Assembly: GCA_963819145.1 (NCBI GenBank)
Contig: CAWFVB010000011.1
Location: 55,234-119,233 of the forward strand
Length of the DNA: 64,000 nt
DNA from: an uncultured Acidobacteriaceae bacterium
GTDB lineage: Bacteria; Acidobacteriota; Terriglobia; Terriglobales; Acidobacteriaceae
Reading direction: 5' to 3'
Below the pieces are notes generated by a model, which was given only the letters and a program-made list of their open reading frames with translations, had not been told where the DNA came from and made no database searches. The first letter of the stretch is position 1. Each line of letters begins with the position of its first letter. Below, piece by piece: positions 23,060 to 40,743 of the stretch. The position numbers and the translations under genes are program-made.

Positions 23060-23115
23060 TCGCCGCGTGCGCTGCTATCCTAGCTGTGCGATTCCCGGAT
23101 CCGTTCGTCGGGATC

Positions 23116-24886: not shown

Positions 24887-26161
24887 TTGGCGGAAGAGAC
24901 GCTTTTGACCGATGACTTTCTTCGCCAGCTCATCAACGTTGGCGAGGTGGACATCGTCGTAGGCCTGCCCACCCATAACAATGCCAAAACCATCGAGTCC
25001 GTCCTCCGGGCGATTCAGGCCGGCATTCTCAAGTGTTTTCCGCGCGAACGAGCGGTAATCATCAATGCCGATGGCGGATCGCAGGACGGAACTCCGGAAC
25101 TGGTAATGGGCGCCTCGATCGACGACGTGTGGAAAGCGTCCAAAGTGTATGCGCTGCGCACTCTTGCACTCCATCAGCACCCAGCTATGCGCGCACTCCC
25201 GAGCCTGGAACTGCGCTGCGCACGATTCTGGCCGCCGCCGACCTGCTGCGCGCCAAGGCGTGCGTAGTGGTTTCACCCGATTCCACGACCATAGAACCCG
25301 ACTGGCTTCAGCGGCTGGTCCGCCCGATCTACAGTGACAACTTTGATCTGGTTGCGCCCATCTATCGCCGGCAGAAATTCGAAGGCGTGCTCATGCGAAA
25401 TCTGCTGTACCCCATGACGCGCGCGATCTACGGTTTTCGGGTCCGCGAGCCCTACGCCTCGGAATTCGCCGTCTCCGGCCGCCTTGCCACCGATTTTCTG
25501 GCTCCAACGAAGTCTGGAACGACGAGTGGGGCAAGACCGGCGCCGAAACCTACCTCACGATCACGGCCATGACGGGCAAATACCGTCGTGTGCCAGTCTT
25601 TCCTCGGGGACTAAGGCTCAACCGAGTCGGAGTGCCAGCGATCTGGTTGCGGCCATGCGCCGGACGGTGGGCGCTCTGTTCTCGTCCCTGGATAGGAATT
25701 TTCCGCAGTGGAGTACGATCGCGGGCTCTCAGCCTGTGCCGACTTTAGGCGAGCAATCAGAAGCCATGCCGGAGCCGGCGCGTGTCGACCGCAAACGTCT
25801 GCGGGAGATGTTCGCCACCGGCGTCGCCGAATTGGAACCTGTTTTCCGCTCGATTCTCTCAGCGTCGACCCTGGCCGAACTGCAAAGAATCGCGACGCTC
25901 GAATTCGGCGCTTTCAATTACCCCGCCGACCTGTGGGCCAAAACGGTGTTTGAGTTTGCGGCTTCTTATCACAAATCCGTCATCAATCGTGACCACATCG
26001 TCCAGGCCCTGGTTCCTCTGTATCGCGGAAGGACTTTGGCTTTTCTCCTGGAAAATCGCGATGATTCCGGGCGAAACATCGAGAGAAATGTGGAATCTCT
26101 ATGTGGCGAGTTCGAGCGACTGAAGCCATACCTGCTCGAAGTTTGGGCTGACAGAAAGTGA
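24887..26161 (+). pseudogene. GT-A-fold glycosyltransferase (glucosylglycerate-synthase-like family), multiply frameshifted
   Basis: The N-terminus LTDDFLRQLINVGEVDIVVGLPTHNNAKTIESVLRAIQAG...INADGGSQDGT is typical of GT-A. The sequence continues through ORFs 25149.., 25033.., an untracked frame (VWNDEWGKTGAETYLTITAMTGKY) and 25484..26161. About six +1 shifts. The family assignment is tentative. Confidence 0.55.
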
Positions 26162-26168
26162 GGCGCTT

Positions 26169-26855
26169 ATGCGGGAAATCATCATCACCGAACTGACCCA
26201 AGCCTTGCAGGAACTGGCCAGAGGCTTTGCACACTACCTGCCGCGAATGGCTGTGATGTTAATCATCGCTTTCGTTGGATGGATCATCGCCTACGTGTTG
26301 AAGGTGGTGGTGCGGAGCATCCTGCGCCTGACAAAGTTTTCCAAACTCTCGGAAAACGCAGGCGCCACCCAACTTCTGAACCAGGCGGCACTTGCCGTCC
26401 TCCACGGAATTGTTGAGCCGGTTTGTTTTTTGGGTGGCTTGGGTCGGGTTCATTCTTCTGGGCGTGAGCGTACTTGGGATCGTCGGGTTGCAGGAATACA
26501 TCTCGCGGTTCTTTCTCTTCCTGCCTCGGTTGTTCGTGGCACTGGTGATTCTTTTCTTGGATCTTTAGCGGCCAGCTTCTTCTCGCGCGCGGCCCTGCTG
26601 GCAGCGGTCAATGCAAACTTCCGGTCTTCGCGACTGCTGAGTGTCTCCATCCGGGTCATCATCAGTATCTTCGCCCTGTCCATGATGTTCGAAGTGCTGG
26701 GCGTCGGGGAAGAGACGATGATGATCGCGTTCGGGACTGCATTTGGGGCGGTGATGCTCGGTTTGGCGCTCGCCTTCGGCATCGGAGGCAAGGATCTGGC
26801 GCGCGAGTTCCTGGAGAAAGCGGCTCGCAGGGAAAAAGGAAGAGAAGGAGGATGA
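26169..26855 (+). pseudogene. Conserved TM-helix-repeat membrane protein (mechanosensitive-channel-associated TM_helix type), internal frame detour
   Basis: The tracked 228-aa ORF is non-membrane-like in the middle. The alternative frame between about 26395 and 26560 reads PSSTELLSRFVFWVAWVGFILLGVSVLGIVGLQEYISRFFLFLPRLFVALVILFL, restoring helices. Confidence 0.5.
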
Positions 26856-26917: not shown

Positions 26918-28495
26918 CTAGCCGCTACCGAGCGCGCTTCTAACTTTGCGGGCCAGAGCGGTGTAATCAACTTTCGCGTTATGACGCTTGTCGACCGGAA
27001 CATGGTCCAGGCGGACCACTTCATCCAGTTGCGCCCAGGTAAGAGAACTCCGTATCGCCTCGAGCGAGACAGCCCCTTCGGCCTCAATCGCGAGTACACG
27101 GCGCCCGTCGATCGCGGCCAAGGCGGCTCGCCGAATCGCGGGAGTCTGCATCGCCGCGCACTCCACTGCGAAGGGATACAGTGTGCCTCGCGCGTCCCCG
27201 ATTTTTCCGTTGCACCGGCCGAGCAGCCAAAGCCGGCCGGCCGAGTCCATGTAGCCCAGGTCGCCAGTCCGATGCCAGCGTGTGCCTTCAACCCCGAACT
27301 TGGTCTCTGTGTCGCCTTCTCCATTGACGTAGCCGGACAGGACATGGCCACCGGAAACCACGATCTCACCCGGTGTCCCGCCCTCCACCACAAGGCGCTC
27401 GAACGACTGGGCACTCAGAGGCGGAATCGGTGCGCCCCATTGATCGCGAATAATGCGCAAAGTAAGCGAAGACACTGTCCGTCCCGCGAGAAGCCCCATA
27501 CCCTGCTCCATCGCATGGAAGTCATCCCTTGAGATGCTTGAGAGCGCAATCTCCGCCATGGGCTCGGCTTCGGTCGAGCCGTAGACAGCGGTGATTTCAG
27601 CTTGTGGGCAGTATGCCTTCGCCTTACGGAGAAGGCTCGGAAATACCGGAGCCCCGCCCACGTAGATTCTCGCGAGCTCGGAAATTGTGGTCCCGGTGCG
27701 CTCGCACTCGTCCAACAGTCGAGACAAGAGTGCTGGCGATGCTGCGGTCGTTTCTATATTGTGGCGGCGAATCTGCGCCAACACTGGCCCGGGAACGATC
27801 TGGCCAGGCAACTTCAGATCGGCGTCCGGCAGGACGCTCGTGACGCCCGAAGCCAGGTTCGCGAGCACAAAAACTGGCAGGGTGGTCAGGTCTGTCCGGC
27901 CCGGTTGCAGCGCAAGACTGGCCTCGAGCGCTCGATGTTGCGCCAGCAAGAAGCCGTGCGTGCGCAACGCGGCTTTCGGTTGCCCAGTACTGCCGCTTGT
28001 GAAGGTGACCAGGGCAGGCGCCTCCGCAGGGAGCGGGACAATCTCCAATGCAGGAGTCGATTTTGTGCGCAATCGCAGTCGTTGCGTTCCAGGAAACCAC
28101 TCCGAGCAAAACGCTTTGGGAAGCCGACGGAGCGCTGGTATTGTCCAGCGCAATAGCTGCGCGCGTTGGCTACCGAAGAAGGCCGCCGGTGGAAAAATCT
28201 TGCAGCAGCGTTCCACATTCTCCCGCCCGGCGGAGGGATCGAGGAAAATTGCGATACACCCCAGGCGGAACAACGCAACCAGAACCAGGTAGAGCTCCGC
28301 GGATACTGGATGCAGCAGAAGAACACCGTCGCCCGGCTTGAGATTCGCGGCCCTGAGCTGATCTGCGACATCCGCGGTCGCGTTCTCGAATTCGCGGAAA
28401 CTAAAGGAGCGGTCACGACCGCGACGAACATCGACAATTGCCGCATTGTCGCCAAGTTCCGCCGCGCGCTGCAACAGGATCTCGGCGATATTCAC
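26918..28495 (-). CDS. AMP-dependent synthetase/ligase (adenylate-forming enzyme, acyl-CoA-synthetase-like)
   Basis: C-terminal 525 aa of the tracked 857-aa ORF, from GTG at 28495 (VNIAEILLQRAAELGDNAAIVD). Contains the AMP-binding core TFTSGSTGQPKA, YGSTEAEP, WHRTGDLG and the terminal K (NAKVDY). See the finding on the hidden gene boundary. Confidence 0.8.
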   Translation of the reverse strand: MNIAEILLQRAAELGDNAAIVDVRRGRDRSFSFREFENATADVADQLRAANLKPGDGVLLLHPVSAELYLVLVALFRLGCIAIFLDPSAGRENVERCCKIFPPAAFFGSQRAQLLRWTIPALRRLPKAFCSEWFPGTQRLRLRTKSTPALEIVPLPAEAPALVTFTSGSTGQPKAALRTHGFLLAQHRALEASLALQPGRTDLTTLPVFVLANLASGVTSVLPDADLKLPGQIVPGPVLAQIRRHNIETTAASPALLSRLLDECERTGTTISELARIYVGGAPVFPSLLRKAKAYCPQAEITAVYGSTEAEPMAEIALSSISRDDFHAMEQGMGLLAGRTVSSLTLRIIRDQWGAPIPPLSAQSFERLVVEGGTPGEIVVSGGHVLSGYVNGEGDTETKFGVEGTRWHRTGDLGYMDSAGRLWLLGRCNGKIGDARGTLYPFAVECAAMQTPAIRRAALAAIDGRRVLAIEAEGAVSLEAIRSSLTWAQLDEVVRLDHVPVDKRHNAKVDYTALARKVRSALGSG

Positions 28496-29491
28496 TTTGC
28501 CAGATCCTTGGAATAGAGAGTGTATTTGCGCATCACGGTGGCAGAGTGGCGGCTGATATTGAGTGAGATGTTGTCTTCGAACATGAGCGCGTGAATGCAG
28601 CGGCGAAAGCCCATTCTTCAGACCAATTTGGTGCGCGCGCGCCACCAACAACGTTCCCAGACCTCGAATTTCCGGCTGTGGAAGAATGGAAACGGTCTTG
28701 ATGATAAACGTGTCCACCTCGACGCCGCGGGCCTTCTGCGCCAGGTCGGGGATAGCGAACAGGTAGCCAATACATTGCGCGGAGCGCTCGGCAATCAGCA
28801 CAAGTTCAGGGCGAGCCATAGGCAAAACAGGTTCGTACATTGCGACAAACTCAGTTTGAGGAATCTCGGTGTAGAGGAAATTCTGCTGGAATGACACCCG
28901 GCTTACCGCATAAATCGCCGGAAGGTCGCGCCTGAGGTCGGCATTCGCCATGCGAATCACAACTCCCGCCTCTCCAATCCTTGCTTCGACCGCATCTAAT
29001 CGCGGGTCTGGACGCGACAGATCTGCGTTCAGCGCCGAGAAATAGTTCGCCAGCGGCGAAAACCCCGATTCCTCAAATTGCCGCGGCCATTCCGAGGGAT
29101 TCGTTGGTTCAAGAAAAAACGGCGGCTCGTTTCCCCGCTGCGTGACGAAGCGGTAACTGCGCCAGGTGTTTCCATTCATGGGACCGATCGCCAGTGTGCA
29201 TCCTGCGGCGCGCAACCGATTCTCCGCCTCTGCCAAAACGGCGGACGCAGAGAAATCGTCTGCCGCGGCATAGTGTCCAATCACTCCGACACGGTGCTGT
29301 TGGTAGGATGGCGAGTGTTTCCACCACAGTGAACAACGGGCCTGTACGTCCCCGCCGTCGGAGAGGGCGCAGAGATGAATATCAGCGTGCTGCGTTTCGA
29401 AATCCGACGAATTGAAGCGTGGCAGAGTTGCAGCCTCCACCAAGCTGTCGATTTCGGAAGCTCTAGCGCAATGAACGACTCGCATCGTCAA
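28492..29491 (-). pseudogene. Tandem-GNAT-like N-acyltransferase, single +1 frame break near 28611
   Basis: N-terminal 290 aa of the 857-aa ORF up to ...RGLGTLLVARAHQIGLKNG. Shifting +1 at aatGGGctt gives GFRRCIHALMFEDNISLNISRHSATVMRKYTLYSKDLAK*, a canonical GNAT C-terminus. It ends at a TGA that overlaps the GTG of the ligase (GTGA). Confidence 0.7.
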
Positions 29492-29518
29492 GTATCCTGA
29501 CTGCCAGAGTTGCGAGCA

Positions 29519-30802
29519 TCACGATGCCAGCCTGCCGCAGCCAGCGGCCGCCGCTGGCCGGATATACGCCGTCCCGGCGTGGTTCAAACAAGTAAAATAT
29601 TCCGAACACGGCGGCACAAACCAGCAGCCCAGCCCCCGCCTCGAGCAGCGATGACGCTGGAACCGCGCTTCAATCAGCACGTATGGCGCAAACATCAAAC
29701 ACCATGAGACCAGGACGCAGGCACCCATCACCAGCCGCACCGAGGAGTATCGAGAATAGAGCAAGCTCCACGCGATGAGGGCAAGGTGAATGGCGAACGA
29801 TAGTGTGTACGGAAACAGCAAGCCCGGTTGCTGCCAGATCCGAAAGAGAAAAAGCCACACCAGTCCGGCCGATGACACGCATAAAACAGCCCGGAGATTG
29901 TGTGTACGGTTCGCCTCCGTAATCCCTGCGGGGAGGGACGACGCCACAAATACTATGGCCGGCGGTATCAGCCACTGCCATCCTCCCAGGGCCCACGAAA
30001 CGTACAGGACCAATGCCGAAGCCAGCAACCCGCTGCCCTGCAGTGTGGTCTTGCGGCCATAGGCGGTCACAAAAATGACCAGCGCAACCAACACCCGAAA
30101 TCGGTTCCACAGTTGGCCCAAAGGCATTGCCAAATAGAGTTTCAGGAGAATGAACACGCCGAGGGGAATAAAGATATTGTCGAGCCCTCGCCAGGCAATC
30201 GCCTCGAGCAACATTACGATCAGGCCAATGTTGAGCGAGATCAGCAGAGTCTCGATCCGGCCGGCATCCGAAAACACGAGCAAAGCTACGTGTACGCTGA
30301 AAAAAGCCGCGCCGAAGAAAGCAATCGAGCCCTCCATGCTCTTTGTAGCTCCAGTGGCCCTGAATCCGTGCTTACCGTATTCGGCACCCGTCAGCGCGGC
30401 CACCGTATCTGCCAGCGTCAGGACAACCAAGGGGACGGCGTACACCAGTTTTCCGCCATTCGCGAGTTGATAGAGCAACGCGACTGACATGGGAAAATAG
30501 ATTTCTCCCCAGGACTCGCGCGCAACGTCATCCAGCACTCCCGACATTTGCTTGCGAATCGGTCCCAAATATCGAATGGCCAGCAGCAGCGCGATCGAGG
30601 CCCCGCAGAGAATGAAAACCGGCGCCTTGCTGGAGAAAATCCACGGCAGGCTGATCGAGAGAATTCCCGTCCCGATGTGCGCCAACTTGCGAATCCACTC
30701 GCCGTCGGCACCCATCCACTTGCGGTAGAGGCGCAGAAACAGCAGCATCGCCAGCGCGCAAGCCAGCACGATTAGAAGGGCCACCGTGTCGTGGATAGTC
30801 AT
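29519..30802 (-). CDS. Polytopic membrane protein with an N-terminal CTP-transferase-1 / polyprenol (dolichol, phytol) kinase-like domain
   Basis: 427 aa. RKLAHIGTG and KSMEGSIAFF motifs resemble the CdsA / dolichol-kinase / VTE5 family, followed by about 6 extra TM helices. ATGA overlap with the upstream gene. The last ~45 codons look frame-shifted (see findings). Confidence 0.65.
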   Translation of the reverse strand: MTIHDTVALLIVLACALAMLLFLRLYRKWMGADGEWIRKLAHIGTGILSISLPWIFSSKAPVFILCGASIALLLAIRYLGPIRKQMSGVLDDVARESWGEIYFPMSVALLYQLANGGKLVYAVPLVVLTLADTVAALTGAEYGKHGFRATGATKSMEGSIAFFGAAFFSVHVALLVFSDAGRIETLLISLNIGLIVMLLEAIAWRGLDNIFIPLGVFILLKLYLAMPLGQLWNRFRVLVALVIFVTAYGRKTTLQGSGLLASALVLYVSWALGGWQWLIPPAIVFVASSLPAGITEANRTHNLRAVLCVSSAGLVWLFLFRIWQQPGLLFPYTLSFAIHLALIAWSLLYSRYSSVRLVMGACVLVSWCLMFAPYVLIEARFQRHRCSRRGLGCWFVPPCSEYFTCLNHAGTAYIRPAAAAGCGRLAS

Positions 30803-31914
30803 GCGACCTCCTCGACCACGAGCGCACTGTAGAAGAAGGCCTGATCGCGGGCGAACAATTGCTCGCTCAATTCGGAGAGCGGGCGCAGGACTGCTGCGAG
30901 CGATTCAGGGCGACGGCGCGGCGCCAGCATGTTCCAGTAAGCGAGACGGGCGCCAGGGAGAGCGCTCGACACGATCAACCGCAGCAATTCCTCGTAGGAC
31001 GACGGCGACATGTACTCGAAAATGTCGCTCAGGTTGAAGCAGTCAAACTTCTGATCACCTTGGAGTGATTCTTCCAGTGACGAGCATCTCCAAAGCAGCC
31101 GGTCAAGATTGCGCCGAATCGGCTCGAAGTTCTCTTCGCGCAGGGCGACGGGGAGCACGGCCGGAAGGCCAGGCCGCGACCCGGGATTGTGATAGCCGGT
31201 CAGTATCCAATGAATGTAGGGATTCGCCGCCGGTTCCAGCACGGTCAGGGCGTATTCGGTGCGCTTGAGAATTCGATCGGCGACGCTGCCGTCCACGTAG
31301 CGAAAGAACTCCGGATCACGGCCCAGCAGGCCCATCACGGTCCGGGAAAAGAATACGCGGAACATGAGACGCCAGCGGAGATTGTTCCACCGATTGTCGT
31401 AGAACGAGCGCCGCTCCGGCGCCGATTTTGGCAGCAGCAGTTCGCGAACGCGCCCGCGAGAGTGAACCAGCGGCATGACACGATCGCGGAATATTTTGAA
31501 ATAGTGCTCGAACTTGCCAACCGAACCAATTCCTGCCGAAATCAAGCGCGGCCGTTCATCCCAGAAAGCAAGCGCATTGGCCGACAGATGCTTGCGGCAG
31601 GCTTGATAGAGGCGCAGGCGATCGTTGCTCTCGACGGACCCGACCAGCGCGAGCAACTCCCCGTGTTGGAGCGTGCGATAGGCCGCCACACGCAGTTCCA
31701 GGCACGAAAGCTGTGCCGCGCTGAGATCCAGCGCGAGCACACTCTCGGGGTGACGCGACAAGAGCGCCAGCGTATTGTCGCCGGCCGAAGCGATCGAGAG
31801 ACAACGCTTTCCGGGACCAGGATCGAGCGCGGCAAGCAAAACGTCGGCATCTTCCCAGCACTGTGCGTAACGAATGCCCGAAAAATCGGCGCGGTCTGCC
31901 GCTTCGCTACGCAT
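30799..31914 (-). CDS. DUF3419 family protein (BtaA-like, SAM-dependent 3-amino-3-carboxypropyl-transferase family)
   Basis: The sequence IRYAQCWEDADVLLAALDPGPGKRCLSIASAGDNTLALL...LDLSAAQLSCLELR is characteristic of DUF3419/BtaA. Start taken at ATG 31914 (MRSEAADR), 8 nt inside the upstream gene. The tracked ORF starts at 31974. Confidence 0.8.
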   Translation of the reverse strand: MRSEAADRADFSGIRYAQCWEDADVLLAALDPGPGKRCLSIASAGDNTLALLSRHPESVLALDLSAAQLSCLELRVAAYRTLQHGELLALVGSVESNDRLRLYQACRKHLSANALAFWDERPRLISAGIGSVGKFEHYFKIFRDRVMPLVHSRGRVRELLLPKSAPERRSFYDNRWNNLRWRLMFRVFFSRTVMGLLGRDPEFFRYVDGSVADRILKRTEYALTVLEPAANPYIHWILTGYHNPGSRPGLPAVLPVALREENFEPIRRNLDRLLWRCSSLEESLQGDQKFDCFNLSDIFEYMSPSSYEELLRLIVSSALPGARLAYWNMLAPRRRPESLAAVLRPLSELSEQLFARDQAFFYSALVVEEVA

Positions 31915-34573
31915 CAGCTTTCCTCGGAACGAGCCGGCGGACGATTCCCGCGGAGCCGTCCAACTCGACCACATCCCCGTCCTGAATCCATTCGAGTAGT
32001 CCGGGAATCGAGATCACGGCTGGAATTCCAAGTTCACGGGAAACGATAGCCGAGTGCGAAAGCAAGCTTCCGCGCTCGACGAGCAGGCCGCTCGCCGAGG
32101 GGAAGAGCATGATCCAGCCGGGATCGGTGTGGTCGGCGACCAGAATACAGCCCGCCGTCAAGCGCGCATTCTTGGGATCACGCACCACTCTCGCCGTTCC
32201 CCTCACAATGCCAGGACAACATCCCAGACCTGTCCTCTCTTCACCTCCGGCGGCAGCGCTTACACTTGGTCTGCTCGATCGATAATTTTGCGCATGGTAT
32301 ACCGGGCCGCGAGTCTCAAAGCGATCTGAGGGAGCCTCGCCTTCCCGGTAGACCGAAAACTCCTTCTTCCTCACTGCCACCAAAGTCCGCAGATCGGCGG
32401 TGCTCGCGGTTCCGTCGTTGAAGGCGAGGATTTCGCCCACTTCCAGGTAGAAGACATCGCGCGCGTCATCGAGCCGTCCGATGGCTTCGAGGCGGCGACC
32501 TGTCTCCAGGAAAAGCCGGCGGATGGTCCCAAACAATCGCGTTCGCTCAAAACGAAGGTTCTCACGGTTGCGGACGCGCTTGCGCGCCTGGCGCATGACC
32601 CAAAACAAGATTCGCCTGCGAAAGGGTGAACCCGCAAGCGCTTTCCGCATCTTTTCTTCGGCCTTGTATTTGTCCTGACCCTCGGGGATTTTCTCCGCGG
32701 GCGGTGTGCGTGTAATCGAAGCGGCGCGCGCGACTTCTGCGATGTTTCGCAACAAGACCAGAGGATCGTCGTGTAGAGTCTCGCTCTCCAGTTTCAGCTC
32801 CTCCAGACAACGATCGCCAAACTTGGCTAGATAAGCGTCGAAGAGCGCAGAGAATTCCGGATACTTTCGCACGACTTGCAACGCTCTGGCCCCGGGAGCC
32901 TCACGAAGAACTGTCACCAGTTCGGGATGAGCGGCTGCGACCACAGCCATTTCGCGCACGCGCACAGCGGGTTCCAGGCTGATGATATCTCCCTCACCGC
33001 GAATCGCGTCGTTCGCCAGCATTCCGTTGTCGTCCCCGCACCAGCGTGTGGTGAGCTTGCGAAAAGCGCCATGGAAGCTCATGGCGAAGAAATCATTGAC
33101 CAGGGGAGCGTCCCAGCGTAACAACAACTGCTGCTCAAGTTTGTAATAATGCGCCACCAGTTCATCGAGGCGCATATCTTCGAACGGCGGCTGTGGAGAA
33201 GCCAGCGCCTGATTCAGCCGTACATAAAACTCTTCGATTTGTCTGTCCAAAGTGATGTAGTTTCCCACAAGCCCAGCGGCCATTCCCACGCTGCGGAGCC
33301 CGTCGGCAATTCGATCCCGCGTGCTGGCTTCGGCCAATTCGCGGACGATCTCCTCAGGAAGACTCTCGCGAACCCCCATCATCTGTTCCATGAAGCGGCG
33401 ATTGAGCGTAAAACCCGGCAGCAGCGCCAACACTCGGTACCAATTCAGTAAGTTGTAGTAGATGCGGCCTTGAATGAGTCCCAGCATTCGTCTAAAAGTG
33501 CCTTCGTTGGCCGCGATCCTTGCCGTGGAAACATGCATGATGCGGCAAAACTGCCGGTACACGCCCTCATAGATGAAACGCGCGAACGAAAATGTCAGTG
33601 GGGTTGTAACGCCGTTATAACTCTCTGTGATGTTGCTGTTGTCCCAGAGATTGAGCGCGCCCTCGGGGTCGGCCAGATCACGAAGGGTAGTGATCGGGCG
33701 TGACTGCAATAGAAACAGTTGCTCGCCCTCGATGGCCCACTCTATATCCTGGGGCCGTCCGAATGCATGGGCAGCGCGTCGTGCAAGGGCCGCCACCGCG
33801 ATGGCCTGTTCGTCCGTTAGTGCCGGCTGCAAGGCGTCGGCATCACTTAATGTCACGGCCGAGACCCCGTCGGCGGCGGCAGGGTCAAAGCGATGAGAGA
33901 TATTCTTTCGCACGATCGCTCGGTCAACGATTGTCCCTGCGCGATCGACCTTGAACACGTCCGCAGCCGCTTCGCCACCGACCAGCGCCGTTCCTAGCCC
34001 GGGCACGGCCGAAACCACCGCCAGCGAGCGCTGTCCGCTGACAGGGTCAGCACTGAAGGCTACGCCGGAGACGTCCGCGACGACCATCTTTTGTACAAGT
34101 ACCGCAGGGGCGGTAAGCAACGCGCTCGGCAGTCCATGCTGGCGGCGATATTCGAGAATGCGCTCACTGAACCCAGAGCGCCAGACGTCCGCGACTTTGC
34201 TGCCGATTCCGTCCGCGGATACGAAAAGAAAAGTGTCAAATTGCCCAGCGAACGAATGCTGCGATCCGTCTTCGTCGACTGCCGACGAACGCACCGCAAA
34301 ACGGCCTCCTTCGCCAGACAAGTCCCGCAATGCATCGCTCACGCCGTGCTGAATCTCGTCCGAAGGCATAACCGCGAGCAGGGCTGCGCGTGTCTGCTCA
34401 GGATGCTCGGATGCGAGAGCGACGAGTTGTTCTTTCGTCAAGCTGGCGGCAAACGCGGACGGGGGAATCACGAACCAGGGAGGAATGGGAAGCCGCGCCT
34501 GCTCTAATCGCCAGAGCGATAGTGCCTTGCCGCCGAGTTCCCGTAGTCCACCCTCGCGCAAAGCCCAACTCAC
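31907..34573 (-). CDS. PEP-utilising enzyme with rifampicin-phosphotransferase-like domain order (N-terminal PPDK_N ATP-grasp, large middle domain, C-terminal phosphohistidine swivel)
   Basis: N-terminus GGKALSLWRLEQARLPIPPWFVIP and FAVRSSAVDEDG (PPDK_N). C-terminus TDPGWIMLFPSASGLLVERGSLLSHSAIVSRELGIPAV (mobile His domain). The GTG at 34573 overlaps the UbiA TGA (GTGA). The tracked ORF's extra 92 codons lie inside the UbiA gene. Confidence 0.85.
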   Translation of the reverse strand: MSWALREGGLRELGGKALSLWRLEQARLPIPPWFVIPPSAFAASLTKEQLVALASEHPEQTRAALLAVMPSDEIQHGVSDALRDLSGEGGRFAVRSSAVDEDGSQHSFAGQFDTFLFVSADGIGSKVADVWRSGFSERILEYRRQHGLPSALLTAPAVLVQKMVVADVSGVAFSADPVSGQRSLAVVSAVPGLGTALVGGEAAADVFKVDRAGTIVDRAIVRKNISHRFDPAAADGVSAVTLSDADALQPALTDEQAIAVAALARRAAHAFGRPQDIEWAIEGEQLFLLQSRPITTLRDLADPEGALNLWDNSNITESYNGVTTPLTFSFARFIYEGVYRQFCRIMHVSTARIAANEGTFRRMLGLIQGRIYYNLLNWYRVLALLPGFTLNRRFMEQMMGVRESLPEEIVRELAEASTRDRIADGLRSVGMAAGLVGNYITLDRQIEEFYVRLNQALASPQPPFEDMRLDELVAHYYKLEQQLLLRWDAPLVNDFFAMSFHGAFRKLTTRWCGDDNGMLANDAIRGEGDIISLEPAVRVREMAVVAAAHPELVTVLREAPGARALQVVRKYPEFSALFDAYLAKFGDRCLEELKLESETLHDDPLVLLRNIAEVARAASITRTPPAEKIPEGQDKYKAEEKMRKALAGSPFRRRILFWVMRQARKRVRNRENLRFERTRLFGTIRRLFLETGRRLEAIGRLDDARDVFYLEVGEILAFNDGTASTADLRTLVAVRKKEFSVYREGEAPSDRFETRGPVYHAQNYRSSRPSVSAAAGGEERTGLGCCPGIVRGTARVVRDPKNARLTAGCILVADHTDPGWIMLFPSASGLLVERGSLLSHSAIVSRELGIPAVISIPGLLEWIQDGDVVELDGSAGIVRRLVPRKADA

Positions 34574-35490
34574 GCTGCACCCCACTGCCGCAAAACCATC
34601 GGAATGAATCCCAGGCTCAGGTACATCAACAGGCTCCAGACACCTGACATTGCCTCGATCCACTTCCCGCGCTTCGGCACACTCCCTTGCAGAAAATAGG
34701 CTCCAACACCCGCTGCAGCGATGAACAGTGTCACCAACAGGATCAGGATAGGACGAGAAAATCCGATACCGCGAGCTGCGACGTAGGCAAAACCTGCTGT
34801 ACAAGCGATCATCGCAAGCCAAGCTATGACGGCATTGCGCCGTCCCCAAAGGAAGGTATAGGTTTCCACTCCGTTTTCCTCGTCCTGTGGTGAGCGAATC
34901 TTCCGTCCGATCTCAACCACCATGCCGTTGAAGAAACTGACGAGCAGGAACCATAGCAAACCGCGGGGAGGTCGGACTCCGCCGGCGGGAACCCACTCGC
35001 AAGAAGTGGTGTACAGGTCAACCAGAGGCATGATGGCCATGTGCGTAACCATATATGTGATCGGTCGCGCCTTTAGCCACCGCCGCGCGAAGAATTCTTT
35101 GCTCATCAAGCCGAGATAGAGCCAGGTAAGAAGCAGCAGCATAATGAGCCTTGGCGCCAGCCAGAGGGCAAGTGCCAACTGGATTCCGATGCAACCCGCC
35201 CATACCCAACCAAGATCACGAAGACTAACTAACCCGCGTGGGACCGGGCGATAAGGGCGAAAGCGCGAGTCCTCTTCGAAATCCTTGAATTCGTCGGCGA
35301 TGCGAAGCTGGAGAAAGAACAGGAACGAACTGGCGAAGGCCACCACGCAAGATCGCCAGCCTGGCAGGTGATGCATGCCTCGGATCAGCGCCGAGTAACT
35401 CACCGCCGAGAGACTGAACGCCGCTATTAGCGGAGAGTGGGCGAATACAGGAAAGCGCTCGCGCTGGTAAATCCACCAGCGGTTAGCCAT
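34570..35490 (-). CDS. UbiA-family intramembrane prenyltransferase
   Basis: 306 aa with about 8 TM helices. Both Asp-rich motifs are present: RIADEFKDFEEDSRFRPYRPVPRG and IRSPQDEENGVETY. Confidence 0.85.
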   Translation of the reverse strand: MANRWWIYQRERFPVFAHSPLIAAFSLSAVSYSALIRGMHHLPGWRSCVVAFASSFLFFLQLRIADEFKDFEEDSRFRPYRPVPRGLVSLRDLGWVWAGCIGIQLALALWLAPRLIMLLLLTWLYLGLMSKEFFARRWLKARPITYMVTHMAIMPLVDLYTTSCEWVPAGGVRPPRGLLWFLLVSFFNGMVVEIGRKIRSPQDEENGVETYTFLWGRRNAVIAWLAMIACTAGFAYVAARGIGFSRPILILLVTLFIAAAGVGAYFLQGSVPKRGKWIEAMSGVWSLLMYLSLGFIPMVLRQWGAA

Positions 35491-35925
35491 GATCCACCTG
35501 GCCTCGGCAAACGGCGCCGCGAGCTAGCTTCTCGGGCGCCCGAGCGAAATCATGGGAACAAATCGCACCGGTCAACGAGATTTCTCCGGCGACATAGATT
35601 CCGCCAAAGCACGAGCATGCCACGCGCCGGCCACACCCAGACCCTGCAGGCACGCGTGTTGAGTTGGGAGCGACTGTGCGAACTCGGGCGCAGACTTATT
35701 TTCGAGGAGATGCTTCAGGGGTTTGCCTGCTCGCTCTTCACTGCTTGCCACCCGTTTTCTCCTGGAGCACTGAGATCGGTTTTCGGCCCGCGCCGTAGAC
35801 AACAATGCTTGGGAGTATAGTGCACGAACAGGAAGGAATCGAATCGCGAAGCACATCGGAAGACAACAGCCTACGTCGCCCGCGCACGGGCCGGCTCCGG
35901 CCGCGAGAACAGCCTTGGAGTGATA

Positions 35926-37311
35926 CTACCTGGGGTTTTCAGCCATTGGGAGCCGCACTTGAAAGTTCGTGTTTCCAGGCTTCGAATGCACCTGAATATT
36001 CCCGCGGTGCTTCCTCACGATGCGTTGGACTGTGTCGAGCCCGAGCCCCGTTCCTTCTCCCACGCCCTTGGTCGTAAAGAAAGGCTCAAAAATATGGGTC
36101 TCGATTTCCGGCGCAATCCCCGGTCCGTTGTCGCCGATCTCCACCACGACGCTGTTCTCCTCGCGATACGCGCGAACTCGCAGCTCACCTTTTCCGCGCA
36201 TGGCGTCAATAGCGTTGTCAATCAGGTTAGTCCAGACCTGGTTGAGCTCGCTCCCGAAGGAATTCACCAGCAGGGGAACCTTCTGGTAGTCCCGCAGCAC
36301 CACAACGCCATGTTTGAGTTTGTGGTTCATGATGATCAGCGTAGTTTCCAGGCTCTTCACAATATCAACGTTCTGCACAGGAGCCTGATCCATGAATGTG
36401 TACTGCTTGATCGCGGCTACCAGGTCGGAGATTCGCGATGCACTGCTCTCGATTTCGCTCAGCAGATTCGCAATCTCCACTGACGCCGCAATCCTCACCA
36501 GCGCAGCCCGGGCAGTTTCCGCATCGAGGGTTCCGAACAGCGATTCCAGCATCTCAGGCTTGACGCTCTTCCGCGCCAAATCCGCAGCCAGTTGCCACAA
36601 ATCATTTTGTCCATGACTGCGCAGCAACGAATCCAGTTGTTCCTCGAGGTCGCTGGTGGTCAGGGGATCCGGTGGAGGTTCGTTGCGCGCAACGAAAAAG
36701 GCTTCCAGCTTTTCGATTTCCGCCTTCTGCTCCGGGGTCAGAACACGTCTTCCCAGCTCCAGGCTGGCGTCCCTTATCTTCTTCAAAATGTCGCGCAGCT
36801 GGCTCGCGGCACGTTTTGCTGCGGAAGCTGGATTGTTGAGCTCATGCGCCAATCCAGCTGAAAGTTTGCCTAACCCAGCCAGCCGGTCGCGCTGTTGCTC
36901 GAGCCGCGTCGTCTCGCGAATGCGGTCGGACATCAAGCCCACCAGGCGCTTGGTCAACTCCGGCATCTTTTGCACGAGATCCGGAAACTGGGAAGCGGGA
37001 AATCGTAATGCGTGACTGTCGGTCTCGGCTCGCAGGCTCACCGTAAACTGCTTCATTCTCGAAAACGGCAGCACTCCGGTGACGTCCCCCGGGCTGATGG
37101 TGAAGGTGACGGTATCGCCGGCAAATTCGCCGCGGCCCTGAATCTGTCCCTCCAACAGTAGAAACATCGCGTCGGCCGGATCGCCTTGACGCGAGTAACT
37201 GCCGCCCGCCGCGAGCCGAAGTTCCTGCGATTGGCTGATGAACCAGGTGATCTGGTCCGGCGGTAAATCCGCGAAGATTGGGAAGCGAAGCAGCTCCGAG
37301 TTATCGACCAT
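35926..37311 (-). CDS. Sensor histidine kinase with an N-terminal cyclic-nucleotide-binding (cNMP) domain
   Basis: 461 aa. cNMP-like beta-roll (FPIFADLPPDQITWF...GDPADAMFLLLEGQI), HisKA H-box (LSAGLAHELNNP) and HATPase_c (N, G1, G2 boxes: DNAIDAM, GDNGPGI, GTGLGL). Confidence 0.85.
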   Translation of the reverse strand: MVDNSELLRFPIFADLPPDQITWFISQSQELRLAAGGSYSRQGDPADAMFLLLEGQIQGRGEFAGDTVTFTISPGDVTGVLPFSRMKQFTVSLRAETDSHALRFPASQFPDLVQKMPELTKRLVGLMSDRIRETTRLEQQRDRLAGLGKLSAGLAHELNNPASAAKRAASQLRDILKKIRDASLELGRRVLTPEQKAEIEKLEAFFVARNEPPPDPLTTSDLEEQLDSLLRSHGQNDLWQLAADLARKSVKPEMLESLFGTLDAETARAALVRIAASVEIANLLSEIESSASRISDLVAAIKQYTFMDQAPVQNVDIVKSLETTLIIMNHKLKHGVVVLRDYQKVPLLVNSFGSELNQVWTNLIDNAIDAMRGKGELRVRAYREENSVVVEIGDNGPGIAPEIETHIFEPFFTTKGVGEGTGLGLDTVQRIVRKHRGNIQVHSKPGNTNFQVRLPMAENPR

Positions 37312-38983
37312 TTATACTTTGCTCAAATACTGATGGATGAATTGCACCGCTACAGATCCTTCGCCTACTCCGGAAGCCACGCGTTTGACCGAGCCGTGCC
37401 GCACATCGCCCACGGAAAAAATTCCGGGAACGTTGGTCTCCAAGAGAAACGGGTCGCGTTCGAGCGTCCAGCCGCTTGGGGCGCTCCCCGCTTTGGATCA
37501 GGTCCGGACCGGTCAGAATGAAGCCGCGGTCGTCCCGCTCGACGATGCCCGCCAACCAATCTGTTCGAGGCAACGCTCCAATAAAGATAAACATGGAACT
37601 TGCCGGCACTCTCTCCACCTTATTCGTGTCCGAGCAAAGAACGGAGATCTCCTCCAGGTGCACTTCGCCATGGACCTCGGCGACGCTGGCATGCGTCCAC
37701 AGCTGAATATTCGAGGTCTCTTTGATCTGGTCAATCAGATATTGCGACATCGTGCTGGCAAGCGAGTCGCCGCGAACCAGGATTACGACGCGCTCTGCGT
37801 ATTTCGAAAAATTCATCGCTGCCTGGCCGGCTGAATTCGCGCCGCCCACCACATATACCATCTCGCCCTTGCAAGACAGCGCCTCGGTTGCGCCGCCGCC
37901 GTAGTAGACTCCCGCGCCCTGCAACCGGTCGATCCCCGGCGCTTCCAGCCGCCGCCATTGCACTCCGCTGGCAATCATCAGCGCGTGGCAGGAAATCTCG
38001 TTGCCATCGGCCAACTTGATAATCCTGTAGGATCCCTCGGTGCGAATACCGACTGCCTCCTGAGGCGCCAGGATTTCCACTCCAAAACGCTGGGCCTGCA
38101 CCACACCACGACGTGCGAGATCGCCGCCGCTAAGTCCGCTGGGGAACCCTAGATAGTTCTCGATCCGCGAACTCATTCCCGCCTGCCCACCCGGCGCCTC
38201 GCGCTCAATCATTACTGTGTGCAAGCCTTCCGAGGCCCCATAGACCGCGGCCGCCAAACCAGCCGGTCCTCCACCCACAATTGCGAGATCATAAAAACTG
38301 GTTTGCGCGCGCGTACGCAGCCCGACCTTTTGCGCGACTTCAGTCGGAACGCTTTTGAGAAGTTTTGTTCCGTCTGGAAACAGGACGATGGGAAGCTCAC
38401 TCGCATCCGATCCCAGCGCCTCAAGGAGGCGCTTGGTCTCAGGGTCGTTGGCCGAGCCCTCAACGTCGATCCATTGATAGGGAACGTGGCTGCGTGCCAG
38501 AAAATCCCGCAGTTCATACGATCGCGGCGACCATCGCGTTCCCAATACGCGGATTCCCTCGAACGCCGGATGGTATGAGGCCCTCCAATCATCGAGCAAG
38601 TCATCCATTTGGGGGTACAGATGCTCGGCGGGAGGATCCCACGGTTTCATGAAAAAATAATCCAGATTCGCCTGGTTAATGGCGTTGATCGCTGCGTTCG
38701 TGTCCGCATACGCGGTGAGTAGTGCCCGCTTTGCATCGGGAAAAATCTGTCTGGCTTCCTGCAGAAAGCCAATACCGTCCATCCGAGGCATACGCTGGTC
38801 GGCGAGGAGAAGGGCGACTCCGTTATTGCGCACCTTAATCCCCTTGAGTAGTTCTAGAGCCCCTTCGGGCGAGTCACTGGCGATGACGCGATAATCGGCC
38901 CCATAGTGTGATCGCAGATCACGCTCAATGGCCCGCAACACATCGGGGTCGTCGTCCACCGTCAGGAGTATCGGTTTCGCCAT
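37301..38983 (-). CDS. Response-regulator receiver fused to a glutaredoxin-like domain and a thioredoxin-reductase-like flavoprotein. The C-terminal ~50 codons are out of frame.
   Basis: REC domain (ILLTVDDDPDVL...LLADQRMPRMDG...K), FAD motif (DLAIVGGGPAGLAAAVYGASEG) and NAD motif (VVGGANSAGQAA). Removing one c at about 37474 gives the canonical end GWTLERDPFLLETNVPGIFSVGDVRHGSVKRVASGVGEGSVAVQFIHQYLSKV*, stopping at 37312 directly before the kinase ATG. Start taken at ATG 38983. Confidence 0.85.
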   Translation of the reverse strand: MAKPILLTVDDDPDVLRAIERDLRSHYGADYRVIASDSPEGALELLKGIKVRNNGVALLLADQRMPRMDGIGFLQEARQIFPDAKRALLTAYADTNAAINAINQANLDYFFMKPWDPPAEHLYPQMDDLLDDWRASYHPAFEGIRVLGTRWSPRSYELRDFLARSHVPYQWIDVEGSANDPETKRLLEALGSDASELPIVLFPDGTKLLKSVPTEVAQKVGLRTRAQTSFYDLAIVGGGPAGLAAAVYGASEGLHTVMIEREAPGGQAGMSSRIENYLGFPSGLSGGDLARRGVVQAQRFGVEILAPQEAVGIRTEGSYRIIKLADGNEISCHALMIASGVQWRRLEAPGIDRLQGAGVYYGGGATEALSCKGEMVYVVGGANSAGQAAMNFSKYAERVVILVRGDSLASTMSQYLIDQIKETSNIQLWTHASVAEVHGEVHLEEISVLCSDTNKVERVPASSMFIFIGALPRTDWLAGIVERDDRGFILTGPDLIQSGERPKRLDARTRPVSLGDQRSRNFFRGRCAARLGQTRGFRSRRRICSGAIHPSVFEQSINGR

Positions 38984-39099
38984 GCTTACTCGCAGATCGC
39001 AGATAAAGAAAAGCCAATTCCACAAAACGCCAGGCTTCGATGCTCTCTGCGATTAGATACCGGAGCTGGCGTTCCAGGTGCGGACTATCTTTTGAGTTT

Positions 39100-40732: not shown

Positions 40733-40743
40733 TCTCTGACTCC

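Follow-up and report, generated by a model that had tools for sequence, protein, structure and literature searches.

The region at positions 26918-35490 of the 64,000-nucleotide stretch of Acidobacteriaceae DNA analysed here (the window) raises the question of whether its overlapping minus-strand genes serve one pathway and, if so, what that pathway makes. An initial annotation had described six genes as a single operon with no characterised counterpart. Consistent with the latter point, full-text literature searches returned no paper on the pathway, no curated family names it, and no NCBIfam model reaches its cut-off for the operon proteins, two of which are annotated as "hypothetical" in RefSeq.

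Gene layout and junctions

Minus-strand ORFs were found at the annotated positions (Table 1), and the UbiA, Rph-like, DUF3419 and ligase assignments each exceeded the Pfam gathering cut-offs. The four overlapping junctions were reproduced exactly, namely GTGA at 34570-34573, where the GTG start of the Rph-like gene overlaps the UbiA stop, ATGCGTAG at 31907-31914, ATGA at 30799-30802, and GTGA at 28492-28495, where the GTG start of the ligase lies within the overlap with the GNAT stop. Independent gene calls on the Logan contig L001 gave identical overlaps at the operon junctions. The gene announced as convergent at the 3' end of the ligase was likewise present and encodes a mechanosensitive-channel-like protein.

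Table 1. Features of the operon region in the window.
Feature	Position	Strand	Basis
Class-I-like HMG-CoA reductase, pseudogene remnant	35486..35820	-	tblastn with intact L003 reductase
UbiA-superfamily membrane prenyltransferase, 306 aa	34570..35490	-	PF01040, 50.9 bits
Rph-like/PigC-like ATP-dependent phosphotransferase, PEP-utilising family, 888 aa	31907..34573	-	PF01326 + PF00391
DUF3419/BtaA-like class-I SAM-dependent transferase, 371 aa	30799..31914	-	PF11899
Polytopic membrane protein, 437-439 aa (repaired)	29463..30802	-	Full-coverage match to homologues
Tandem-GNAT acyl-CoA N-acyltransferase, 330 aa (repaired)	28492..29485	-	Match to 330-aa homologues
Adenylate-forming (ANL) ligase, 525 aa	26918..28495	-	PF00501, 151 bits
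Mechanosensitive-channel-like gene	26169-26855	+	Convergent with ligase

The operon copy in the window has lost its first gene and contains two reading-frame breaks. A separate GNAT gene had been claimed but, as recorded, it is part of an 857-aa ORF (26918-29491) in which the N-terminal part of the GNAT continues into the ligase. This is because one extra base near 28614 (+1) shifts the frame and brings the N-terminal 290 codons into register with the ligase, while the C-terminus, which ends at the TGA of the GTGA overlap, lies in a different frame from the 857-aa ORF. The repaired GNAT covers its 330-aa homologues at 100%. The membrane-protein gene carries a +2 insertion near 29665-29668, and its mechanical ORF stops at 29519; once repaired, it ends at 29463 and matches homologues of 439-445 aa with 100% coverage. 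The junction with the GNAT gene, previously left undefined, thereby becomes a 23-nt overlap with the GNAT ATG (29485), as in the relative L083.

The 435-nt gap reported before the first gene (35491-35925) in fact holds what is left of the two ends of an HMG-CoA reductase gene. The intact L003 reductase (PF00368, 372.7 bits), used as a tblastn query, matched at 35820-35653, 35673-35644 and 35605-35486. Approximately 60 N-terminal and 70 C-terminal codons survive on either side of a central deletion of about 1 kb, with the C-terminal piece out of frame; a three-frame translation yields VASSEERAGK...PTQH joined to ACLQGLGVAGAWHARALAE. L083 also carries a remnant, which is further eroded.

Integrity of the window copy

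The two frameshifts stem from errors in the assembly or, if genuine, from very recent mutation. We regard it as unlikely that the copy is a decaying, non-functional relic, with the reductase deleted and the GNAT and membrane-protein genes truly frameshifted. The reductase remnant itself is real, as two independent short-read contigs carry it too, without indels over 30250-37064, and the deposited 251-kb contig gives the same shortened 427-aa membrane-protein call. Moreover, the window consists mostly of long intact ORFs, and indels are therefore unevenly spread. Against decay, the membrane-protein part has a dN/dS of 0.07 relative to L083 and the GNAT part one of 0.11, so that any inactivation would be very recent. 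In addition, unrelated neighbours that are intact in L083 are fragmented in the window, for example an alpha-amylase gene (at least four pieces) and an EgtD-like gene (two pieces), a pattern indicative of local faults in the assembly or consensus. Independent copies of the sequence were sought by exact-protein look-ups and one metagenome scan, which returned no match.

Enzyme families

Both Asp-rich motifs of the UbiA protein had been described as intact. The first (ADEFKDFEED) is canonical and aligns with the NDxxDxxxD of E. coli UbiA, whereas the second conserved segment reads NGxVxExGRKxR...EE.GVETY and lacks the canonical DxxxD. The closest solved structure by sequence was the DGGGP synthase 6m31 (E = 0.056), and dN/dS against L083 was 0.07. 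The Rph-like enzyme matched PF01326 (201.5 bits), PF00391 (77.1 bits) and PF27448 (Rph_4th), with the Listeria rifampin phosphotransferase structures 5fbs/5hv1 as top solved structures (208 bits), and the swivel-domain His in GSxLSHSAIV was kept across 48 homologues.

The DUF3419 protein scored 212.4 bits against PF11899, covering positions 4-381 of the 385-position profile, and its SAM motif SIxSAGDN is conserved. It aligned end to end with BtaA from a btaA-btaB pair (E = 8e-24) at just 26% identity, so that the group it moves could differ. The reported lack of a BtaB-type N-methyltransferase was borne out, none being conserved in or beside the cluster across 79 loci; in the genuine pair, such a gene overlaps btaA.

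The polytopic membrane protein showed no match to PF01148, the suggested family, at any E-value tried, nor to any entry in Pfam, NCBIfam or the PDB. The conserved N-terminal half is similar to dolichol/phytol kinases and CdsA, and all 22 invariant residues fall within residues 35-213, while its C-terminal half has no conserved polar residues. With hhalign, the segment ADxxxALxGxxxGKxxY...KSxEGS was aligned with CdsA residues 163-199 (36 columns, P = 0.012, probability 3.6%), and matches to DUF92/VTE6 were marginal (E = 0.021 and 1.3). The 36-column CdsA match and the JGI label of "phytol kinase" on its homologues only hint at the proposed prenol activation by a putative kinase or CTP-transferase.

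PF00583, suggested for the GNAT, was absent in the ORF of the window, weak in all 23 GNAT homologues scanned, and above the cut-off in a Brevibacillus homologue (43.6 bits). Foldseek matched the tandem GNATs FemX, MshD, MAB_4324, VipF and MprF, from E = 4e-7, and the CoA motif RGLG is conserved. For the ligase, in which motifs A3, A5, A7 and A10 are conserved, the closest NCBIfam models were PRK09274 (365.7 bits; cut-off 478) and OleC (206; cut-off 900). Overall, each of the five enzymes examined, whether soluble or membrane-bound, has conserved catalytic motifs.

Distribution, gene order and selection

Gene-neighbourhood analysis revealed that the six-gene order recurs across phyla more than by chance. 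Of 79 species-representative loci, 41 have the six genes in colinear order and two more contain the full set arranged differently; most others are interrupted by contig ends. Carriers belong to at least nine named lineages (Acidobacteriota, Verrucomicrobiota, Chloroflexota, Deinococcota, Gamma- and Alphaproteobacteria, Desulfobacterota, Planctomycetota and Bacillota). The cluster resides on a 136-kb plasmid in Roseinatronobacter and comprises eight genes, with a P450 last, in Brevibacillus laterosporus. A P450 also lies downstream of the ligase in 11 other loci, and its closest NCBIfam models are the terpene-oxidising albaflavenone and pentalenene oxygenases. The reductase gene directly adjoins UbiA upstream in about 33 loci and is the first operon gene in most relatives; it is dispensable in several lineages, so that any role for it in the proposed scheme is tentative. 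The membrane protein, too, is dispensable in some lineages.

One natural fusion of 719 aa joins DUF3419 to GNAT and shares 59% identity with the DUF3419 protein of the window; another, of 787 aa, joins the membrane protein to GNAT (hhalign E = 8.5e-62). The GNAT family numbers 816 representatives among 50%-identity clusters (E <= 1e-30), and soil and freshwater metagenomes are very rich in the family, with more than 2000 clusters at 90% identity. For all six genes, dN/dS was 0.07-0.15 between the window and L083, neither of which has the reductase. The operon genes are inherited together, coupled in translation and in some cases fused, and purifying selection acts on them.

These observations support the prediction that the region is one functionally linked operon, as the cross-phylum synteny and translational coupling suggest. 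The proposed number of six genes did not stand, given that the operon usually begins with a reductase gene and frequently closes with a P450. It has seven to eight genes.

Proposed pathway and alternatives

We consider it somewhat probable that the region represents a conserved operon subject to horizontal transfer, here in a version without the HMG-CoA reductase, and that this operon would assemble a prenyl-bearing amphiphile at the membrane. From the gene neighbourhoods, the full order is HMG-CoA reductase-like, UbiA, Rph/PigC-like phosphotransferase, DUF3419, dolichol/phytol-kinase-like membrane protein, tandem GNAT, ANL ligase and, often, P450. In this genome, the reductase was lost long ago and the remaining six genes were kept under selection. 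The amphiphile would comprise two parts. A first module (reductase, UbiA and phosphotransferase) would supply and transfer the isoprenoid part, with the Rph-like enzyme phosphorylating a donor or acceptor hydroxyl. A second one (DUF3419, membrane protein, GNAT and ligase) would build the polar group: DUF3419 may move a 3-amino-3-carboxypropyl (homoserine-type) group from SAM onto a lipid hydroxyl, and the GNAT may N-acylate the new amine using acyl-CoA made by the ligase. The natural DUF3419-GNAT fusion lends indirect support to this order of steps. Tailoring of the product, probably a prenylated, amino-acid-decorated, N-acylated lipid, may fall to the P450 and, in those lineages that have one, to a sulfotransferase. 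A lipid is suggested by the two integral-membrane enzymes and by a Woeseia locus, where an RND/sterol-sensing-domain transporter occupies the position of the membrane protein. The chemistry predicted by the initial annotation is plausible and partly supported; the annotation assigned no role to the reductase-like gene or the P450. The points weighed against the pathway were the weak kinase assignment, the low identity to BtaA, the non-canonical second UbiA segment, the dispensable reductase and the two genes of the window whose frames are broken as recorded.

That the cluster instead makes a specialised metabolite, such as a meroterpenoid or lipo-amino acid that is secreted or serves in signalling, rather than a bulk membrane-lipid head group, is possible but less likely. 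Such a product would fit the patchy cross-phylum distribution with one plasmid-borne copy, the variable tailoring genes (P450, sulfotransferase, and MFS and RND transporters), the P450 affinities, and the dispensability of the reductase and the membrane protein. However, the core includes two polytopic membrane enzymes, the family abounds in soil and freshwater metagenomes, and selection is strongly purifying; the two readings also overlap, as they share the same enzymology. Tailoring by P450 and sulfotransferase, the patchy distribution and the plasmid-borne copy would suit a specialised metabolite no less than a membrane lipid, and count to that extent against the main reading.

Salvage or conversion of isoprenoid acids and alcohols, with no head-group building, appears improbable. 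Along such a route, the ligase would form an acyl-CoA, the reductase-like enzyme would yield the alcohol, the two kinase-like proteins would phosphorylate it, and UbiA would use the diphosphate. HMG-CoA reductases do turn a thioester into an alcohol in a four-electron reduction, the Rph-like enzyme is a phosphotransferase acting on hydroxyls, the membrane protein bears the JGI label, and the plant VTE5/VTE6/VTE2 route, which combines prenol kinase with a UbiA transferase, provides a precedent. This scheme nevertheless leaves over DUF3419 and GNAT, the most tightly linked members and found as fusions. Moreover, the reductase is often lost while the ligase remains under selection, and the membrane protein lacks conserved polar residues in its C-terminal half and matches DUF92/VTE6 at marginal level. 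An ordinary betaine-lipid (DGTS) locus is scarcely credible: DUF3419 does belong to the BtaA family, but the distant identity, the missing BtaB partner and the six or seven other conserved partners, which have no role in DGTS synthesis, argue against it.

Comparison with known systems

Over its full length, the DUF3419 protein is homologous to BtaA, whose N-terminal SAM motif it shares, and it is plausibly also a transferase onto a lipid hydroxyl. It differs from the BtaA/BtaB system in its sequence divergence, in the absence of BtaB, in its occasional fusion to GNAT and in its setting among prenyltransferase, kinase-like, GNAT and ligase genes; its acceptor is probably not diacylglycerol. Archaeal-type ether-lipid synthesis combines DGGGP synthase with a CarS/CdsA-type CTP-transferase. 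Here, 6m31 was the only solved-structure match of UbiA, NCBIfam DGGGPS models were among its weak matches, and the membrane protein shares the CdsA motif, but these similarities are marginal and GGGP synthase is not conserved in the cluster.

Plant and cyanobacterial phytol salvage employs VTE5 phytol kinase, VTE6 phytyl-phosphate kinase and VTE2 homogentisate phytyltransferase. The operon similarly pairs a kinase-like polytopic membrane protein with a UbiA-family prenyltransferase, but without a PF01148 match or a convincing VTE6/DUF92 domain, and with different other partners. The phosphotransferase shares with Rph and PigC/RedH a three-part architecture of ATP-grasp, central Rph-type and phospho-histidine swivel domains, including the catalytic His, but it scored below all NCBIfam cut-offs and far under those of the Rph, PigC and RedH equivalogs (306.8 vs 999, 308.1 vs 1300, and 342.6 vs 1350, respectively).

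Finally, in fungal siderophore acylation, HMG-CoA reductase yields mevalonate, which is processed by the mevalonyl-CoA ligase SidI and the GNAT transacylase SidF. The operon resembles this system in its combination of reductase, ANL CoA ligase and GNAT, and differs in having no hydratase partner and a reductase that several lineages dispense with. By analogy, the acyl group could derive from mevalonate, and the parallel offers one rationale for the presence of a reductase in the operon.

Gene content and junctions

The cluster was established as a co-inherited, translationally coupled and selected enzyme set. Two of its proteins are integral to the membrane, and its members include a BtaA-like transferase that depends on SAM, a GNAT of the acyl-CoA type and a ligase that activates acids. 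The four overlapping junctions traced in the initial annotation were all found exactly in the window sequence, the convergent gene downstream of the ligase was present, and gene calling done independently on a metagenome contig from short reads, 99.84% identical to the window, gave the same gene overlaps. Four of the six families claimed were recovered by Pfam above the gathering score (UbiA, PPDK_N plus the PEP-utilizers mobile domain, DUF3419 and AMP-binding). The PF01148 assignment of the membrane protein was not borne out by its profile, and PF00583 was detected in homologues of the GNAT and not in the ORF of the window, whose frame is broken. In the recorded sequence, the GNAT, listed initially as a separate gene, has no ORF of its own, as the 857-aa ORF is the start of the GNAT running into the ligase. 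Likewise, what had been read as a 435-nt gap before UbiA is what remains of a wrecked HMG-CoA reductase gene. Scans for promoter and terminator consensus sequences returned sites no more numerous than in shuffled sequence.

Coordinates of the cluster ORFs as recorded and of neighbouring features in the window
Feature	Position	Strand	Remarks
UbiA ORF	34570-35490	minus	306 aa
PEP-type enzyme ORF	31907-34849	minus	888 aa from GTG start at 34573
DUF3419 ORF	30799-31974	minus	371 aa from ATG start at 31914
Membrane-protein ORF	29519-30802	minus	427 aa
GNAT + ligase ORF	26918-29491	minus	857 aa
HMG-CoA reductase remnant	35486-35820	minus	remnants alone, no intact gene in window
Histidine kinase/response regulator pair	35926-39025	minus	
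Fragmented unrelated gene	23086-24775	plus	intact in syntenic contig L083
Fragmented unrelated gene	25033-26161	plus	intact in syntenic contig L083
Fragmented unrelated gene	39763-40831	minus	intact in syntenic contig L083
Fragmented unrelated gene	40946-41653		intact in syntenic contig L083

Frame breaks in the GNAT and the membrane protein

Alignment with the close syntenic relative L083 placed a single extra base in the GNAT near 28614 and two extra bases in the membrane protein near 29665-29668. The true GNAT C-terminus (GFRRCIHALMFEDNISLNIS...KDLAK-stop) lies in a different frame and ends in the GTGA overlap; the repaired protein of 330 aa was covered at 100% by more than 100 homologues of 328-335 aa among the matches listed. 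In the membrane protein, the extra bases shift the frame such that the final 50 residues of the recorded product are out-of-frame junk, and the repaired protein matched homologues of 439-445 aa end to end. Its stop then falls at 29463, giving a 23-nt overlap with the GNAT ATG, as in L083, which resolves the one junction left open in the initial annotation.

The two frameshifts may be assembly errors, as argued by unrelated neighbours that are broken here and intact in L083, including an alpha-amylase in at least four ORFs and an EgtD-like methyltransferase gene in two, and by dN/dS values of 0.11 for the GNAT part and 0.07 for the membrane-protein part. They may also be real lesions, given that long intact ORFs make up most of the window, that the 6.8 kb that could be checked contained zero indel errors, and that the same 427-aa call is made on the deposited 251-kb contig (251,115 bp). 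Exact-protein look-ups, made with the ligase and the downstream gene as well as with the fused ORF and the truncated membrane protein, returned no independent copy of the two sites, and a metagenome scan whose search pattern covered the GNAT frameshift site returned no match.

Fragmentation is limited to approximately 23-30 kb and 39.7-45 kb, with long ORFs elsewhere in the window, and these patches are either local assembly errors or a pseudogene patch. The fragmented set also contains a split glycosyltransferase-like gene, and the pieces of the EgtD-like gene (Methyltransf_33) adjoin a truncated FGE-sulfatase/EgtB-like gene.

Conservation across genomes

Loci were collected by a GNAT-alignment scan of one genome per GTDB species, yielding 79, which were searched by tblastn with the six window proteins. 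The six-gene order recurs: 41 of the 79 loci have UbiA, PEP-type enzyme, DUF3419, membrane protein, GNAT and ligase in colinear order on a single strand, most of the remainder ending at contig ends, and two Desulfobulbales genomes carry all six genes rearranged. No methyltransferase family was recurrent in the 79 loci, in agreement with the reported lack of a BtaB-type N-methyltransferase. Carriers belong to Acidobacteriota, Verrucomicrobiota (Opitutaceae, Akkermansiaceae, Luteolibacter), Chloroflexota and Gammaproteobacteria, including Woeseia, together with one Trueperaceae genome, Desulfobulbus rhabdoformis DSM 8777, one Phycisphaeraceae genome and Phormidium. Two further carriers, a 136-kb plasmid of Roseinatronobacter sp. 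S2 and the genome of Brevibacillus laterosporus B9 (NZ_CP011076.1, 463.4-474.8 kb), came from a protein search of a plasmid collection. In the plasmid record (NZ_CP121116.1; loci L085 and L087), the reductase gene spans the record origin, and an LPS/glycan-type operon (HAD phosphatase, two GT2, WavE family gene) lies just upstream of the cluster in the same orientation.

A cytochrome P450 gene follows the ligase in 11 loci from three phyla as well as in Brevibacillus, in which all eight genes are arranged head to tail on one strand. Two fusions were found, namely a 719-aa DUF3419-GNAT protein (locus L092, 1176-3335), which precedes the ligase in a locus lacking a membrane-protein gene, between the two or elsewhere, and a 787-aa membrane protein-GNAT protein (locus L093, 2366-4729) between DUF3419 and the ligase. 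The cluster divides into two modules, reductase-UbiA-phosphotransferase and DUF3419-membrane protein-GNAT-ligase, which are apart or reordered in some genomes. At the Woeseia locus (L031, 6493-8694), an RND/MMPL transporter with a sterol-sensing domain occupies the membrane protein's usual place, and the rearranged Phycisphaeraceae cluster (L036, 15922-19741) contains an MFS transporter, a P450 and a sulfotransferase.

Upstream in the window, a histidine kinase with a cyclic-nucleotide-binding domain overlaps a response regulator-pyridine-nucleotide-disulphide oxidoreductase fusion. This pair is conserved with L083 (dN/dS 0.03-0.05) and absent from the other cluster loci; it therefore lies outside the cluster and is probably unrelated.

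HMG-CoA reductase

All-against-all clustering of flanking ORFs identified a seventh conserved family directly upstream of UbiA, whose start it often overlaps. This is a class-I-like HMG-CoA reductase, with PF00368 scores of 372.7 bits in locus L003, 360.4 bits in L037 and 393.1 bits in Brevibacillus (L086); the Brevibacillus protein scored 345.4 bits against TIGR00533 (HMG-CoA reductase, NADPH type), under the cut-off of 441.8. In the window remnant, N-terminal codons (VASSEERAGKPLKHLLENKSAPEFAQSL...) are joined directly to C-terminal codons (ACLQGLGVAGAWHARALAE..., then frameshifted AGEISLTGAICSHDFARAPEKLARG). Since two independent short-read assemblies carry the remnant unchanged, with zero indels, and L083 has it in a more eroded state, the deletion is real and old. 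Of note, the 90%-identity cluster that holds the 306-aa window UbiA includes proteins of 431-437 aa named HMG-CoA reductase by JGI, a clustering oddity possibly linked to the overlapping reductase and UbiA genes.

Loss of the reductase has occurred repeatedly, namely in the window, L083, L006 (where a remnant survives), L011, L014, L040, L042 and L081, which favours an accessory role. Between the window and L083, both without the reductase, dN/dS was 0.07-0.15 for all six genes at a dS of about 0.8, so the six genes have kept their function without a clustered reductase. The enzyme might supply mevalonate for the isoprenoid part, might provide a mevalonyl-CoA-type acyl donor by analogy with the fungal SidI/SidF system, which uses such a donor, or might act in optional tailoring by reducing the thioester formed by the ligase.

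Family assignment of the cluster proteins

The window UbiA matched PF01040 with 50.9 bits (gathering cut-off 34.2) over profile positions 12-237 of 250. Both Asp-rich motifs had been described as intact. The first (NDxxDxxxD) is indeed canonical, reading ADEFKDFEED, with D66, E67, D70 and D74 invariant in 18 sequences, and aligns with the first Asp-rich motif of E. coli UbiA. As to the second, no conserved DxxxD was found, and hhalign left that region unaligned to E. coli UbiA; the conserved segment reads NGxVxE193xGRKxR...E204, then EE.GVETY. Invariant N/E/R/K residues occupy the usual place of the second metal-binding motif. The best NCBIfam model was PRK13592 (84.6 bits, cut-off 443), NF009522 (DGGGP synthase) reached 26.5 bits against a cut-off of 353 and thus stayed below equivalog level, and the sole PDB sequence match was the DGGGP synthase 6m31 (E = 0.056). 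The protein belongs to a diverged UbiA subfamily.

The PEP-type enzyme combines an ATP-grasp, an Rph central domain and a His swivel domain, as in rifampicin phosphotransferase/PigC, and matches the solved structures 5fbs/5hv1 with 208 bits. At least 95% of 48 sequences share the swivel-domain His in GSxLSHSAIV. Scores lay under the equivalog cut-offs of Rph (306.8/999), PigC (308.1/1300) and RedH (342.6/1350). PEP synthase (pyruvate, water dikinase) was rejected, with 220.9 bits against the TIGR01418 cut-off of 739.75 and the wrong domain set. PF01326, the Rph-type central domain and PF00391 were the only domains found, the C-terminal PEP/pyruvate-binding TIM-barrel being absent, which points to a small-molecule phosphotransferase or an ATP-dependent activating enzyme rather than a PEP synthase.

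The DUF3419 protein scored 212.4 bits against PF11899 and aligned full-length (residues 11-367) with BtaA of the R. leguminosarum pSK03 btaA-btaB pair at 26% identity (E = 8e-24). Classical DGTS synthesis was rejected, as no BtaB recurs in the 79 loci. DUF3419 is mentioned in a cyanobacterial paper, where it refers to an unrelated flanking gene.

For the membrane protein, PF01148 gave no match at E <= 1 with 22 homologues or at E <= 10 with 10 diverged ones, and no Pfam, NCBIfam or PDB sequence match was obtained. By hhalign, residues 131-166 aligned with residues 163-199 of E. coli CdsA (P = 0.012, probability 3.6%); the segment aligned to the CdsA motif is the invariant ADxxxALxGxxxGKxxY...KSxEGS, in which D132, G139, K154 and G158 are invariant. 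Homologues are named "phytol kinase" or "Dolichol kinase" by JGI. A Foldseek search of the AlphaFold model (pLDDT 82) against the PDB returned transporter noise alone (TM-scores <0.22), and sequence profiles of this protein and of the GNAT yielded nothing usable against the PDB. A fusion of VTE5 and VTE6 (prenol kinase plus prenyl-phosphate kinase, DUF92/VTE6) was considered and dropped because, across phyla, no polar residue is invariant in the C-terminal half, the invariant residues being confined to the N-terminal half; PF01940 matched two diverged members weakly (E = 0.021 and 1.3).

The GNAT fold is duplicated, with Foldseek probabilities of 1.00 and E-values from 4e-7 for a moderate model (pLDDT 68) with low TM-scores; matches included FemX, MshD, MAB_4324, VipF and the MprF C-terminal domain. 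PF00583 was found in 23 of 23 homologues, weakly (best E = 1.4e-7), the Brevibacillus protein scoring 43.6 bits (cut-off 20.7). Within the CoA pyrophosphate-binding motif (R/Q-x-x-G-x-G/A), at least 95% of 70 sequences share the GLG of RGLGTLL. The family comprises 816 representatives of clusters at 50% identity at E <= 1e-30 and 1847 at E <= 1e-10, and more than 2000 clusters at 90% identity.

The ligase matched PF00501 with 151 bits, with motifs A3, A5, A7 and A10 conserved (TFTSGSTGxPK, YGSTEAEP, WHRTGD and the C-terminal Lys). It lay under the equivalog cut-offs of the OleC models (206/900 and 190.5/850) and of PRK09274 (365.7/478), against which the Brevibacillus ligase reached 402.8 bits. 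It is a complete enzyme of the ANL type, with PRK09274 and OleC as its nearest models.

Proposed pathway and significance

The product would be a prenyl-bearing amphiphile assembled at the membrane. UbiA would attach the isoprenoid, with the donor or acceptor phosphorylated or otherwise activated by the Rph-like enzyme and the kinase-like membrane protein. The DUF3419 protein would place a homoserine-type 3-amino-3-carboxypropyl group on a hydroxyl, followed by N-acylation of that amine by the GNAT using the acyl-CoA of the ligase, and a P450 or a sulfotransferase could tailor the product. The DUF3419-GNAT fusion fits two consecutive steps, transfer and N-acylation. Taken as a whole, this scheme is, by a small measure, probable. 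The further proposal is doubtful and put forward tentatively: that the operon makes a bacterial membrane lipid of a new class. Such a homoserine-type amino lipid would have an isoprenoid anchor (prenyl-ether or prenylated-acceptor) and an N-acylated amine, the acid possibly deriving from mevalonate, and some lineages would hydroxylate or sulfate it. It would be widespread among the Acidobacteriota and Verrucomicrobiota of soil and fresh water, with horizontal transfer to seven or more further lineages.

Acidobacteriota and Verrucomicrobiota rank with the most abundant bacteria of soil and fresh water, and to our knowledge much of their lipid and isoprenoid chemistry is still unassigned. The operon is very common and joins a BtaA-like transferase, a prenyltransferase and a putative orphan HMG-CoA reductase-like gene, a linkage that could explain the presence of HMG-CoA reductase in some carriers. 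It points to a new amphiphile, which might be useful as a biomarker or influence the properties of the envelope. The significance of the window copy itself is tempered by its missing reductase and its broken frames as recorded. The cluster is directly testable, as it is found in the cultured Brevibacillus laterosporus B9, on the Roseinatronobacter sp. S2 plasmid, in Luteolibacter spp. and in Desulfobulbus rhabdoformis DSM 8777.

Comparison with known systems

A search of the literature and of curated families found no paper describing the cluster and no family naming it, in line with the initial view that the pathway had not been described. DGTS synthesis is resembled in its BtaA component, whereas the cluster is without BtaB. 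Phytol salvage combined with a UbiA transferase is resembled in part, except that the cluster membrane protein has no PF01148 match. The archaeal DGGGPS/CarS system is likewise partly similar, with cluster scores under the equivalog cut-offs, and so is Rph/PigC chemistry, with scores under every such cut-off. Each taken as a whole, these four systems fail to accommodate the cluster, which is rated as a bacterial operon for lipid/isoprenoid biosynthesis whose gene set is without precedent.
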